Of a stretch of 3,634 nt of DNA, positions 1-3,634 are shown piece after piece. The translations under genes were made by a program, and so were the position numbers. Source of the stretch: a phage; the sequence record PZ049718.1, one strand, 5' to 3'. The stretch's first letter is position 1; every line of letters begins with the position of its first letter. The notes under the pieces were generated by a model. That model had not been told where the DNA came from. It saw nothing but the letters and a program-made list of their open reading frames with translations, and made no database searches.

Positions 1-1015
1 CCGCAGTGGCGGGAATGCGCCCGAGGCGTACCGTTCCCCTGCCCTCTCGCGCATTAATTTGATCGACCACGGCCATCAGTCGATCGGCACCTAGGCGCGG
101 GGCGGCGGCGAACAGGTCACCAGTGAATTCGCCTCGCTGCCGCAGATCCATCAGCAGCACCTCGGCTTTGCTGTAGGCGTAGCCATGCCGGTAGATCGCT
201 TCAAGCCCGCGCACGGCTGCAGCGGCGAGCACGCGAGTGTCGTCGGTCGGGTACGGCAGAGGGCAGCTGATGGCGTTCGCGTATCGCGGCTGGTTGGGGT
301 TGTGCATGCCGGTACGGATGGCAACCTGCAGCGCGCCGGCCAGACTTTGCTGGGAGCGCAGCTTCTCGGCGGCCTTGGTAACGTAGGCCACGACCGCCTC
401 GCGGATCGGTGCGATGTCGCGCAGGCGGCTGCCAAACATTTTCGAGGAGCAGATCATCTGCCGGGGCGGTACCGCCTCCTCCAGCTCAAGGCAGGAGATT
501 CCATGCAGCTCGCGGGCGGTTTTCTCCAGCACCACGCTGAATTGCTTTCGCAGCGATGCGGAATCGTACTGCGCTAGGTCCCAGGCGGTCTGGATGCCCA
601 GCGGGCGCAGGCGGGTAGTCAGGCGCCGGCCGACGCCCCACACTTCGCTCACCTCGGTCATCTTCAGCAGCCGGTCGCGTCGCTCCGGGTCGCTTAGGTC
701 GATCACACCGCCGGATTTGCGCCAGGTCTTGGCTGCCCAGTTGGCGAGCTTAGCCAAGGTCTTCGTTGGCCCGATGCCCACGCCAACCGGTATGCCGGTC
801 CACCGCAGCACACGCTCACGCGTCTCATACCCTAGCGGCACCAGGTCGCCGGTTATCCCCGTCAGGTCGGCAAACGCCTCGTCGATGCTGTACACCTCGA
901 TTCGCAGGGAACATTCCCTCGATGACGTCGTCATCACCCTGGCGCTCATGTGTCCGTTTATGTGTAATAGAAAGTCAATAAGAACCGGGCCATGCTCGCC
1001 CTTGGAGCTTCTCAT
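1..1015 (-). CDS. umuC: Y-family translesion DNA polymerase, UmuC/RulB family (Pol V catalytic subunit), 5'-truncated remnant. Recognisable homology covers about 2-955; the N-terminal ~85 aa are replaced by unrelated sequence; the 3' end continues past position 1. Probably a disrupted, non-functional gene.
   Basis: Minus-strand translation reads ...HMSARVMTTSSRECSLRIEVYSIDEAFADLTGITGDLVPLGYETRERVLRWTGIPVGVGIGPTKTLAKLANWAAKTWRKSGGVIDLSDPERRDRLLKMTEVSEVWGVGRRLTTRLRPLGIQTAWDLAQYDSASLRKQFSVVLEKTARELHGISCLELEEAVPPRQMICSSKMFGSRLRDIAPIREAVVAYVTKAAEKLRSQQSLAGALQVAIRTGMHNPNQPRYANAISCPLPYPTDDTRVLAAAAVRGLEAIYRHGYAYSKAEVLLMDLRQRGEFTGDLFAAAPRLGADRLMAVVDQINAREGRGTVRLGRIPATA and continues off the edge. It matches E. 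coli UmuC motifs recalled from memory: YSIDEAF (active-site Asp-Glu), the GIxxTKTLAKLAN helix-hairpin-helix, VWGIGRR, and the C-terminal LNAKEGRGT. It is absent from the ORF track because its stop lies beyond the left edge. The same frame has an in-frame stop at 1070-1072 and a first in-frame ATG at 1013-1015, but UmuC similarity begins only near 955. The symbol is used in the family sense; rulB, mucB or impB cannot be told apart from sequence alone. Confidence 0.85.
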   Translation of the reverse strand, partial: MRSSKGEHGPVLIDFLLHINGHMSARVMTTSSRECSLRIEVYSIDEAFADLTGITGDLVPLGYETRERVLRWTGIPVGVGIGPTKTLAKLANWAAKTWRKSGGVIDLSDPERRDRLLKMTEVSEVWGVGRRLTTRLRPLGIQTAWDLAQYDSASLRKQFSVVLEKTARELHGISCLELEEAVPPRQMICSSKMFGSRLRDIAPIREAVVAYVTKAAEKLRSQQSLAGALQVAIRTGMHNPNQPRYANAISCPLPYPTDDTRVLAAAAVRGLEAIYRHGYAYSKAEVLLMDLRQRGEFTGDLFAAAPRLGADRLMAVVDQINAREGRGTVRLGRIPATA

Positions 1016-1464
1016 ACCCAACCGGTATGGCTGTAGCTTCTGAGGAGATCGCCGTCGCTCACCGGATCATCCGGTCATCCTGTTAGTAACCGGTCAAAGC
1101 TGATCTGTTACATCGAAGGCGGACACCTGTCCATCGACAACACCCCTGCCGAGCGGTGAACCGCCCTCCCATGTACATATGACCAAAACGTCGCCGTTAT
1201 CCTACCGTTCTGTCATGCCTACCCACGACGGAGTATTGACGGTCTCCGTCCTATAACATAGCTTTTCCGAAAGGCGCTCAAGTACATATCGTCATGTGCA
1301 TACGAGCCTCGTGTCGTTAAAAGAAATGGTTGGTGCCGCATGAAAGTGCTCTTCATGATGCCGTTCGGCGTGTCGAGCTTCTCCGCCCCCATCAAGATCA
1401 AGGCTTCGTCTTGGTGTTAGTGCCAGATGCACGTCACCTTGCGGTGCAGGAATGGAGTGTGAAC

Positions 1465-1827
1465 ATGAAAGCAGAAACGGAATCGCGGATTTTTTCGGTG
1501 GACGAATATGTCCGTCCGTCTAACGGCGAACCGATCCGTTCAGTTGTTCTGGAGACCAACGATTCTGTCGTTGTAGTTTGGCACGCCTACCCTAGGCAGG
1601 AAATAGCTGCCCATGTCCATCCTCACGGCCAAGATACTTGGACGGTTATCTCAGGTGAGGCCAAGTATTATCAAGGCAACGGCGTAGAAATTCATCTTAA
1701 AGCTGGAGATATTGCCATTGCAAAACCTGGGCAAGTACATGGTGCCGTGAACTCTGGTCCAGGACCTTTCATATTTGTCTCCGTGGTTGCGCCGGGCAGT
1801 GCAGGTTTTGCGTTATCTGAGAAATAG
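1465..1827 (+). CDS. Cupin-domain protein (cupin_2-type small beta-barrel, probable metal-binding), 120 aa
   Basis: This is the in-frame inner start of track ORF 1330..1827. The ATG at 1465 is preceded by GGAG at 1454-1457 (7 nt spacing); the longer upstream extension has no ribosome-binding site. Translation MKAETESRIF...AAHVHPHGQDTWTVISGEAKYY...KAGDIAIAKPGQVHGAVNSG carries both classical cupin motifs: HxH(x)3-4[E/Q/D](x)6G as H50-V-H52...G64, and G(x)5-6PG(x)2H(x)3N as G81...P88-G89-QV-H92-GAV-N96. Confidence 0.8.
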   Translation: MKAETESRIFSVDEYVRPSNGEPIRSVVLETNDSVVVVWHAYPRQEIAAHVHPHGQDTWTVISGEAKYYQGNGVEIHLKAGDIAIAKPGQVHGAVNSGPGPFIFVSVVAPGSAGFALSEK

Positions 1828-1850
1828 GCGAAAGGCCTGAGAGGAACCTG

Positions 1851-2414
1851 ATGAATACACGAGTATTTACGTTCGCTGGTGGAGAAACGGGGGTTTGGCG
1901 CGTTGTTGCGATGAATGCCGTGGCAGGAGCCCCTCTCCCTGGAATCCCACGGCTCAACGTAGCCGCTGGCTCTGTTTCGCCGCAGCCTCCGGGCACCAAA
2001 TGGCTCCTTCGCGGGATAACGAGTAACGAGCGCTATGTCGTGCGTGAAGAGAAGGATCGTCTCGTGGCGAAGCAGCCAAGCTTGGGTCGAGCAGAGGCTA
2101 CCTGCGCCGCCCTGATCCCTATCCGGAAAAACCCCTCATGGTGGGGACTGTCTCAAGACGAACGCCGGAAGATTTTTGAGGAACAGTCCCGTCACATTCA
2201 CATCGGGCTCCAATATCTCCCTGCTGTGGCCCGCCGCCTCCACCATTGTCGGGACCTGGGCGAGAACGAACCCTTCGACTTCTTGACTTGGTTCGAATAT
2301 TCCCCGTCTGATGAGACGGCCTTTAACAGGCTTCTGGCCGAACTCCGAGCCTCGGTGGAGTGGCAGTATGTCGACAGAGAAATCGACATCCGGCTAGTGC
2401 ATGAGCCGGCCTAG
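1851..2414 (+). CDS. cld: Chlorite dismutase family protein, short clade-2 (Nitrobacter/Klebsiella-type) Cld-like haem enzyme, 187 aa; probable chlorite O2-lyase
   Basis: Track ORF 1851..2414. The ATG is preceded by AGAGGA at 1841-1846 and lies 23 bp after the cupin stop, so the two genes are probably co-transcribed. Translation contains hallmarks recalled for the Cld family: LIPIRK followed by the adjacent Trp pair W97-W98, then SRHIHIGLQYLPAVARRL with a candidate proximal His115 (2193-2195) and distal Arg128 (2232-2234) 13 residues apart, the same spacing as the His/Arg pairs in characterised Clds, followed by FDFLTWFEY. Length and lack of a signal peptide fit the short cytoplasmic clade-2 enzymes. 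The family call rests on memory of motifs, not a search. Confidence 0.75.
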   Translation: MNTRVFTFAGGETGVWRVVAMNAVAGAPLPGIPRLNVAAGSVSPQPPGTKWLLRGITSNERYVVREEKDRLVAKQPSLGRAEATCAALIPIRKNPSWWGLSQDERRKIFEEQSRHIHIGLQYLPAVARRLHHCRDLGENEPFDFLTWFEYSPSDETAFNRLLAELRASVEWQYVDREIDIRLVHEPA

Positions 2415-2558
2415 CATCAGGTTTAACTTCGATCTACGTGCGGCACACTCCTGCGACACCCGCAGCCCAGCAAAACCCCGAAAAATCTAGTGTGTCGCAT
2501 AACTTAGGAGTAACGCGACAGGTATGTCTAGCGAGCCACTAGTCGCTTAAGAACTTTT

Positions 2559-3634
2559 CTACTTATAGCCTCCTCTTTCTCTCATCGATCTCCTCGGCAT
2601 CCTGCCGTCTAGAGCCGGCACATTGTCCAGCTTTCGAATGAGGCTCTCCAGCTTTTCCAAGTCGCCCTCGGCAATGGCTCGCTCGTCGGGAGTTAAAGGC
2701 ACGGCCTCCAAGTACCGTCCGATAGACGATTTGCTTTCCAATGCTTGGGCCCTTGCGCTGGCTTTCGGCAAGTTGAAGTCACACCCCGCACAGGCCATGC
2801 GATGTGGGCAGCTGCTCCAGAAGGGATTTGAACAATACGAGTCGCCCAAGTCATAGAAGGTGTAGGGGGCATCTGAATGGCGAACAATTACGTCATGATC
2901 GATCAAAACGGAGACCATATGGGCCATTTGATCGGCTTTAACGAAGGATGCTGCCAGCTTGGTAGGCCGAATTCGAATGTAATGCAAAGTCGAATTCGGC
3001 GAGCTATGTCCCGACCACTGCATTAGCTCGATCAGCGACATGCCCTGAGGGACGCTGGCGAGCGCCGTCACTGCGGAGGCACGTCCCCGGTGGCTGGTGA
3101 TTCGCCCGCGACTGTCCTCCAGTGGCACACCCGCCTTGGCGCATAGCATTGGAATGATGGTGCCATTAATGACACTGGAGCCTATGCGCTTGCCTCGAAA
3201 CTGAAATAGGTAGCTAACTTTTTCCCCGGTTCGCTCATCCAGCAAAGCGGCCTGGTTAGCAGGCCTGTCCTCCAGCCAGGCGTCAATGCGCTCCTTCACG
3301 ACCACCGCTACAGGTTTGACGAAAGCTTTGAACGTCTTGCTGGCAGGAATATCGAGATAGCATAAAGTTTTTGCTGGAACGATGGTCCCATCCTCGTGTA
3401 CCACATCATTGGTCTGAGGATGCGCGCATCTTTTATCCAAGCGCATGATTTCATTGCTGCGCAAACCAGCGTGCGTCCACACTACAGCAATGGCTTGAAC
3501 CATCGACAGCGGATAGTGAATCTCCGAAAGCAGATCACTACGCTCAAGATTTAGACTCGCCCAAATCAGCTTGAGCCAGGTCGAGTCATCAATTACCCGC
3601 GGGTTGATACCCGAGTTGAATGTCACGGATCGCG
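2559..3634 (-). CDS. Tyrosine-type site-specific recombinase/integrase, partial (N-terminal core-binding domain lies beyond the right edge), with a ~139 aa extension after the catalytic Tyr
   Basis: Track ORF 2559..3626. The listed start is a GTG and the frame stays open to the window edge, so the gene is 5'-partial. The catalytic signature is complete: Arg-I in VWTHAGLRSNEIMRLD (R56), HxxR in SHRGRAS (H179, R182), the second His/Trp in QWSGHSS (H207) and the nucleophilic Tyr in TLHYIRI (Y216, plus-strand 2979-2981). Only ~50 aa precede Arg-I within the window, consistent with a missing N-terminal domain. Stop codon TAG at 2559-2561. Confidence 0.9.
   Translation of the reverse strand, partial: RSVTFNSGINPRVIDDSTWLKLIWASLNLERSDLLSEIHYPLSMVQAIAVVWTHAGLRSNEIMRLDKRCAHPQTNDVVHEDGTIVPAKTLCYLDIPASKTFKAFVKPVAVVVKERIDAWLEDRPANQAALLDERTGEKVSYLFQFRGKRIGSSVINGTIIPMLCAKAGVPLEDSRGRITSHRGRASAVTALASVPQGMSLIELMQWSGHSSPNSTLHYIRIRPTKLAASFVKADQMAHMVSVLIDHDVIVRHSDAPYTFYDLGDSYCSNPFWSSCPHRMACAGCDFNLPKASARAQALESKSSIGRYLEAVPLTPDERAIAEGDLEKLESLIRKLDNVPALDGRMPRRSMRERGGYK

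Follow-up and report, generated by a model that had tools for sequence, protein, structure and literature searches.

The recombinase gene in the window

The window analyzed here is a 3,634-nucleotide (nt) stretch of phage DNA (record PZ049718.1), and all coordinates refer to it unless another record is named. It carries the 3′ part of a gene for a large tyrosine recombinase resembling TnpB of Tn554, which belongs to a 4841-bp element inserted in the umuC (rulB) gene. The recombinase ends in a long tail with a cluster of four Cys residues, and we find that this tail is the normal C-terminal domain of TnpB-type large recombinases. The minus-strand open reading frame (ORF) at 2559–3626 remains open as far as the window end. 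Residue numbers are those of the 357-amino acid (aa) fragment encoded at 2562–3632 (minus strand). They are higher by two than those of an earlier first-pass annotation of this DNA, the numbering of which begins at an internal GTG. The gene and the domains of its product, the latter judged partly by predicted local distance difference test (pLDDT) scores, are as follows.

2559–3634, minus strand: large tyrosine recombinase gene, tnpB-like, of which the 3′ 1076 nt are in the window (ORF and translation; C-terminal 357 aa plus stop)
2979–3632, minus strand: catalytic domain, residues 1–218 (PF00589, conserved residues, pLDDT, Foldseek)
2865–2978, minus strand: linker, residues 219–256 (low pLDDT, indels among homologs), including the usual post-Tyr helix, 223–235
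2757–2864, minus strand: Cys-knuckle/beta subdomain, residues 257–292, with the motif Y-C-x7-CPHRMAC-x2-C-x-F (translation, invariance, predicted strands)
2628–2756, minus strand: acidic antiparallel helical hairpin, residues 293–335 (pLDDT, charge, conserved P-L-x3-E turn)
2562–2627, minus strand: variable C-terminal peptide, residues 336–357 (alignment, low pLDDT)
2559–2561, minus strand: TAG stop of the large recombinase

The full-length protein has 721 aa (WP_011914409.1), the first 364 of which lie beyond the window. It is encoded at 13605–15770 of the Pseudomonas aeruginosa megaplasmid NZ_CP029096 (L001), a copy that is 100% identical to the window over 955–3634. A match to PF00589 spans residues 34–222 of the fragment, and residues up to ~230 match XerA, XerH and Cre in Foldseek searches. 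In an AlphaFold2 model of the 357-aa fragment, pLDDT values for the catalytic domain exceed 90. The catalytic Tyr is Y218 (Y216 in the first-pass numbering), encoded by codon 2979–2981. With R58, K99, H181, R184 and H209 it makes up a complete R-K-H-R-H-Y set, the members of which are invariant or nearly so in an alignment of 62 homologs with 42–94% identity to the window protein.

The first-pass annotation had pointed to the region upstream of this gene, to the right of the window, as a place where additional recombinase genes might lie. One does lie there, just outside the window. It encodes a TnpA-like, XerC/D-like small recombinase of 339 aa (WP_011914410; L001 15767–16786). The two genes are co-oriented and overlap by 4 nt (stop of the small gene and start of the large gene). 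The small recombinase gene also precedes the large one in nearly all those of 80 species loci (from Gamma- and Alphaproteobacteria and Acidobacteria) that are long enough to show it. The small and large recombinases are probably co-translated and would together constitute the transposition module of the element.

Sequence, conservation and predicted fold of the tail

Between Y218 and the TAG stop at 2559–2561 there are 139 residues, the number originally counted. Window positions 2781–2837 (minus strand) translate to YCSNPFWSSCPHRMACAGC, and the four Cys codons fall within 2781–2834, where they had been placed before. The residues are C267, C275, C281 and C284, and the spacing C-x7-C-x5-C-x2-C is also as first described. 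All four Cys are invariant in the 62 homologs, which is compatible with the metal-binding knuckle that had been suggested. H277, R278 and A280 are likewise invariant, and much of the remaining tail is conserved too. The peptide CPHRMAC[AVI] was found in 548 confirmed relatives among contigs drawn from one genome per species. A search with a profile of the tail recovered 1378 protein clusters (at 50% identity), and in the full-length members (~700–800 aa) among the 150 clusters listed the tail match is always at the extreme C-terminus.

A long tail could in principle result from a frameshift or from loss of a stop codon. We consider it practically inconceivable that the tail is such an artefact. 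No earlier stop is present, and the window sequence is 100% identical in ~11 plasmids and at least eight genomes. Homologs terminate at the same place, and hundreds of them agree in tail length and motifs. Because the sequence recurs in many independent assemblies and the homologs end alike, we take the stop to be genuine.

AlphaFold2 modeling of the 357-aa fragment with its homolog alignment places strands at 265–267 and 287–289, around the Cys cluster. These are followed by two antiparallel helices, 293–310 and 315–335, that form a hairpin (pLDDT 83–94). P312, L313 and E317, which are conserved in the 62 homologs, lie at the hairpin turn. A model of the tail alone agrees with that of the fragment (core pLDDT 76–91). 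Overall, the tail is predicted to be folded, with pLDDT values of 76–94, rather than disordered. Confidence is low in the linker (pLDDT <50 for residues 223–256), the length of which varies through indels among homologs, and in the variable end peptide. Many relatives have the sequence VPTPxGxTPR in this peptide, and an enterobacterial clade lacks the peptide altogether. The charged, helical end noted in the first-pass annotation corresponds to the predicted acidic hairpin, for which the mean net charge in the family is −2.7; the Cys segment is approximately neutral and the catalytic domain is basic (+5.3). These predictions describe a folded module of ~100 aa on a flexible linker, consisting of a Cys/beta knuckle, an acidic hairpin and a variable end.

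Searches of Pfam and NCBIfam with the tail alone and with the full protein identified no family beyond PF00589 (weak matches to XerA and GmtZ were below threshold). Sequence searches of the PDB, with one sequence as query as well as with the tail profile, identified no relative of the tail, and fold searches with the tail returned only generic helical hairpins.

The tail is shared with TnpB of Tn554 and Tn558

A Tn558/Tn554-type reference locus (L086) was recovered from a metagenome scan using a published Tn558 primer; two scans of viral contigs with Tn558 primers gave no matches. The locus is complete; tnpA, tnpB and tnpC encode proteins of 361, 639 and 121 aa, respectively. After the catalytic Tyr, its TnpB continues with ...ALPNGYC-x8-CPHANAC-x2-C-x-F... 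and then a helical hairpin. In an hmmsearch with the tail profile built from the window family, this TnpB tail is matched with E=4e-6. Between the 721-aa protein and Tn558 TnpB, BLASTP aligns 355 aa at 23% identity (E=9e-5), with the Cys cluster inside the alignment, and the small recombinase matches Tn558 TnpA with E=1.7e-18. The recombinase pair is therefore Tn554-like, a comparison that had been proposed at the outset.

Profile-to-profile comparison gives the same result. With hhalign, the tail profile matches 45 TnpB-family tails with a probability of 79% and E=1.5e-5 (E=0.15 in a reversed control). The pattern C-x8-C-x5-C-x2-C is kept in 89 of 102 full-length TnpB homologs from Firmicutes, cyanobacteria and Chloroflexi, a set that includes a 630-aa staphylococcal Tn554-type cluster. 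Pfam coverage of Tn558 TnpB extends only to residue 511, so that its tail is unannotated as well. Given the match to the Tn558/Tn554-type tail, we conclude that the tail is the normal C-terminal domain of TnpB-type large recombinases. It had been called unusually long for a tyrosine recombinase, but it is standard for this type.

The third protein of Tn558, TnpC, is a helical protein of ~120 aa (DUF6262). Neither tnpC nor DUF6262 was detected in the ORFs of the 4841-bp element, in segments of the tail, or in Klebsiella copies. Only 145 nt separate the stop of the large recombinase gene from the convergent cargo gene. The tail is close to TnpC in size, and the element has no TnpC-like ORF, so the tail might be a fused equivalent of TnpC (or of Srap or GinD) that explains the lacking third gene. 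This is very improbable. The tail has no DUF6262 match, and comparison of its profile with TnpC gives E=0.029 and no meaningful alignment. The fusion reading was rejected because TnpB of Tn554 and Tn558 has the tail and is accompanied by a separate TnpC. Moreover, TnpC-less tandems related to Tn554 have already been described in Actinobacteria, and TnpC has been argued to be dispensable (PMC3414803).

The 4841-bp element and its insertion in umuC

The remainder of the window comprises the right part of the element and the interrupted target gene.

1–955, minus strand: umuC/rulB target gene, interrupted, 3′ part (IMS, IMS_HHH, IMS_C and DUF4113 domains; translation)
956–985, no strand assigned: right end of the 4841-bp element, reading ...TTCTATTACACATAAA[C] on the minus strand, which pairs with the left end TAAGTTAGGTGGAATGC as an imperfect inverted repeat
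1465–1827, plus strand: cargo, cupin-domain protein of 120 aa (PF07883, E=2e-13; annotated in L001)
1851–2414, plus strand: cargo, chlorite dismutase (Cld)-family protein of 187 aa (PF06778, E=1e-7; annotated in L001)

The 3′ two-thirds of the gene for this UmuC/RulB Y-family polymerase are in the window; the encoded segment begins ...G-H-M-S-A-R-V-M, and the gene runs off the window. Megablast shows that from 955–957 rightwards the window is 100% identical to several plasmids of P. aeruginosa and Stutzerimonas, but the umuC flank differs. Thus, 955/956 is the boundary of a mobile element. The element is exactly 4841 bp long, between AAGTTAGG... and ...CACATAAA, and its only genes are the recombinase pair, the cupin gene and the Cld-like gene. 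The left end, TAAGTTAGGTGGAATGC, lies outside the window. A scan of the window for internal repeats found nothing meaningful.

The junctions were compared in 11 copies. With the junction marked by a slash, the left one reads ...TA[T] / TAAGTTAGGTGGAATGC... and the right one ...TTCTATTACACATAAA[C/T] / G..., and the ends are imperfect inverted repeats. The insertion point is the Tyr codon of N-Y-x-L-Y / G-D-M-S, both in the 11 identical copies and in ~55 diverged loci. We saw no flanking direct repeat (target-site duplication) at the insertion. The base at the right junction is C or T and varies independently of the left flank. [quoted passage not shown]

The identical 4841-bp unit occurs in different species, plasmids and umuC alleles (L001, L005–L012 and L034). 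In three Pseudomonas assemblies (L009, L010 and L011) the element forms a stand-alone contig of 4847–4854 bp, which suggests that a genome has several copies or that a circular form is abundant. The identical copies in distinct contexts and the element-length contigs are indirect evidence of transposition.

In most of the 80 species loci the order is umuC codons 1–76, small recombinase, large recombinase, variable cargo and the rest of umuC. The same order is found on a Klebsiella plasmid with restriction-modification cargo. In L008, in L064 and on the Klebsiella plasmid L004, the element or a relative is found at this umuC site with its orientation reversed. Orientation is influenced by TnpC in Tn554 (PMC3414803), and the umuC family has no TnpC. 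At five Methylomonas/Methylobacter loci (L037, L039 and L041–L043), codons 1–76 of umuC are present a second time, directly next to the 3′ part that lies downstream of the element. Full-length umuC appears to be restored there, and the 76-codon fragment stays upstream of the small recombinase gene.

The umuC family is present on hundreds of plasmids of Klebsiella, Escherichia, Enterobacter and Pseudomonas. In addition, ~470 plasmid records (Klebsiella, Enterobacter and Raoultella) match window positions 1085–2650 at ~91% identity. In these enterobacterial copies, the cupin and Cld-like genes are accompanied by no more than the final ~90 nt of the recombinase gene; the copies are a widespread truncated relic of the right part of the element. 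On the Klebsiella plasmid pY9645-166 (L002, 4315–5319), two ORFs take the place of the small recombinase gene, apparently a frameshift pseudogene, and the large gene is intact. Because its small recombinase gene is split, this copy is probably immobile.

The cupin and Cld-like genes constitute a two-gene unit. The Cld-family protein (1851–2414) matches Pfam model positions 89–183 of 189, i.e., the C-terminal half only, and judging from this match the 187-aa protein may not be a functional chlorite dismutase. Other copies carry other cargo. A relative with 46% identity on a Klebsiella plasmid (L004, 9502–14431) encodes WYL-domain and Mov34/MPN/PAD-1 proteins, and the cargo of L002 is a type II restriction-modification system. 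It may be that umuC elements often carry defense-type cargo.

Predicted role of the tail

The first-pass annotation had listed target-site choice (for example, umuC specificity), oligomerization and regulation as possible roles of the extra domain. Oligomerization or regulation is the most plausible of these. The reading that we favor, with a probability of about 0.6, is that the tail is a C-terminal domain of the Tn554 TnpB type, and that its Cys4 metal module has an assembly or regulatory role in the TnpA/TnpB complex. The four invariant Cys would chelate one structural metal ion, with Zn2+ as the default expectation. The tail would act as a protein-protein assembly or regulatory device in a heteromeric TnpA/TnpB synaptic complex, where it would hold partner subunits or place them in position and thereby govern which ends pair or are cleaved. 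It would not be the reader of the umuC target. The post-Tyr helix is exchanged between subunits in other tyrosine recombinases.

Several observations support this reading. The Cys cluster is retained across families that share only ~23% identity, in a compact segment that is predicted to be folded. The hairpin is acidic and the Cys segment neutral, in contrast to the basic catalytic domain, the flexible tether of the tail includes the post-Tyr helix, and the small partner recombinase is constantly present. In addition, Tfp, a catalytically inactive recombinase fold encoded by an SE-type module in L001, also ends in a four-Cys cluster (C-x17-C-x5-C-x2-C) followed by helices. The SE-type IntB of the same megaplasmid ends in GHGWC-x6-C-x11-C-x2-C and a hairpin. 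The Cys clusters of these related families point to a structural or assembly function that is independent of catalysis. The existence, conservation, predicted fold and TnpB homology of the tail are shown; metal binding, the identity of the metal and the assembly or regulatory role are inferred.

Alternatively, the four Cys could ligate an iron-sulfur (Fe-S) cluster and make the tail a redox- or DNA-sensing module. The presence of four invariant Cys in ~18 residues, spaced x7/x5/x2, fits such a site. The cluster loop of EndoIII and MutY, C-x6-C-x2-C-x5-C, is the mirror image of this arrangement, and the C-x2-C-x5-C unit recurs in AddB, Cas4 and Dna2. However, none of the Fe-S families in Pfam, NCBIfam or the PDB resembles the tail. 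The spacing varies widely in relatives (x6/x11/x2 in SE IntB and x17/x5/x2 in Tfp), as is commoner for structural Zn, and we know of no tyrosine recombinase with an Fe-S cluster. Since related families differ in spacing and no Fe-S family signal was found, Zn is the default, and an Fe-S cluster is improbable.

Recognition of DNA by the tail has more in its favor. Cys4 knuckles often bind DNA, and insertion is extremely site-specific, at the same umuC codon in dozens of species. The large recombinase of Tsy, which is TnsF-like and has zinc fingers, selects comM (PMC10293859). The tail might, by analogy with TnsF in Tsy and Tn6022 elements, be a DNA-binding zinc finger that selects the umuC target or recognizes the ends of the element. 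Evidence against this comes from relatives with other insertion sites. In a sister clade from Acetobacteraceae (L076–L083, and Komagataeibacter L084 at 2244–9955), the recombinase pair splits a UvrD/Rep-like helicase gene and the cargo includes a RecD2-like helicase. The uvrD-like helicase gene is a second DNA-repair gene that serves as target. This clade has the same invariant motif, with 53–55% identity in the tail. The invariant tail residues are also shared by Tn554-family TnpB and by an E. coli plasmid copy that lies beside parAB. We therefore rejected the idea that the conserved residues of the tail confer umuC specificity, and this part of the original proposal is not supported. Furthermore, the tail carries a neutral to acidic charge, in contrast to the basic catalytic domain, and the fingers of TnsF are N-terminal. 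At the same loci, the N-terminal part has 32–56% identity, versus 53–74% for the C-terminal half. Thus, the N-terminal 364-aa region, which is more divergent between clades, is a better candidate for target reading, and selection of the target or recognition of the ends by the tail is unlikely.

A broader possibility is that the Cys4 knuckle and hairpin are an ancient, unannotated metal-binding domain of all multi-recombinase large subunits (TnpB, IntB, Tfp, the actinobacterial tandems and the umuC family). It would either be a switch for synapsis and for directionality or strand bias, comparable to the zinc ribbon and coiled-coil of large serine recombinases, or carry an Fe-S cluster that links transposition to the state of the cell. 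We regard this as speculative and rather doubtful. If true, the shared domain would be a mechanistic handle on heteromeric recombinases.

The result from the window mainly clarifies that the tail is ordinary for its family and is not informative about umuC. The domain is of wider relevance, however, in that Tn554-type and other two- or three-recombinase elements carry clinically important cargo, including the contexts of erm(A), fexA, cfr and optrA, and tmexCD-toprJ in SEs. An invariant Cys4/hairpin domain common to Gram-positive TnpB and the proteobacterial umuC family is a mutable experimental target, and CPH-x2-AC-x2-C is a signature for annotating such elements. In the literature searched we found no mention of the Cys4/hairpin domain and no paper on the cysteines of Tn554 TnpB. 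The Cys4-plus-hairpin tail, as a domain shared with Tn554 TnpB, thus appears not to have been described there.

Comparison with known systems

In Pantoea vagans plasmid pPV989-94, the R4′ element has been noted as an insertion in umuC with a phage integrase and a site-specific recombinase at its borders (PMC5971314). Homologs of the window protein with ~70% identity occur in the same arrangement on Pantoea plasmids and chromosomes. The R4′ element differs in its cargo; it was described by annotation only, with no analysis of recombinase architecture or tail (PMC5971314).

A C-terminal Cys4 module next to an antiparallel helical hairpin is also found in large serine recombinases, in which a C-terminal Cys4 zinc ribbon and an antiparallel coiled-coil govern synapsis and directionality. 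We draw this parallel to the tail as an analogy only.

Tsy (Faure et al. 2023) is a two-recombinase transposon that needs both catalytic activities, has a circular intermediate and inserts into one conserved site in the DNA-repair/competence gene comM, and its large recombinase has zinc fingers (PMC10293859). The window element resembles it as a two-recombinase element with a single insertion site in a DNA-repair gene. Tsy differs in that the zinc fingers of TnsF are N-terminal and an HTH (helix-turn-helix) protein is also needed (PMC10293859). The two systems are likened by description only.

SEs combine an ordinary and a large tyrosine recombinase. They insert site-specifically, often in umuC/rulB, as in the tmexCD-toprJ elements (PMC10214605). 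They probably include the rulB “integron-like elements” (ILEs) of Rhodes et al. 2014. Alignment of the window family to SE recombinases with hhalign is collinear through the four Cys, but statistically weak (with just the tail, E=0.018; with 295 columns that span the catalytic domain and the tail, E=0.0024). In SEs a tfp gene lies between the recombinase genes and there is a separate srap gene; neither is present in the window element, where the genes overlap directly. The tmexCD-toprJ “int-int” elements and the Rhodes ILEs, with int-hp-int-hp or three recombinase-like genes, appear to be of the SE type, and their module differs from that of the window element. The three consecutive recombinase-like genes at one end of a GInt or rulB integron-like island were not found either, as the 4841-bp element holds two. 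In L001, the umuC 5′ fragment beside the element (16787–17400) is itself truncated. The adjacent region (17339–25501) contains a mer operon and then the SE-type module mentioned above, with genes for Tfp (538 aa), IntB (617 aa) and a Srap-like protein (117 aa, weak DUF6262 match). Two unrelated multi-recombinase elements are thus piled up at one umuC locus in this megaplasmid.

The actinobacterial tandems (Van Houdt et al. 2012) consist of one “abnormally long” recombinase (611–828 aa) and one of normal size, without TnpC (PMC3414803). They are likened to the window element by description only; the paper describes an N-terminal extension, mentions no Cys-rich tail and defines no targets (PMC3414803). 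Our searches identified homologs with 42–45% identity and the same Cys motif in Actinobacteria (Nonomuraea, Solirubrobacteraceae and Streptomyces plasmids).

The fullest correspondence is to Tn554 and Tn558, of a transposon family known from staphylococci and enterococci. In both, the large recombinase gene directly follows and overlaps a TnpA-type gene, and the catalytic domains are homologous. The TnpB tail has ~135–140 aa, with a G-Y-C ... C-P-H-x2-A-C-x2-C cluster and a helical hairpin, and is without a Pfam model. The differences are that overall identity is ~23%, that the first Cys pair is separated by x8 there and by x7 here, and that TnpB has 630–639 aa there, versus 721 aa for the window protein with its longer N-terminus. 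Also lacking here is tnpC (DUF6262), and the hosts are Proteobacteria. Tn554 uses a target site other than umuC, into which the window element is inserted. The recombinase and its element thus add a proteobacterial, umuC-targeting and TnpC-less member to the known tandem-recombinase transposons related to Tn554.

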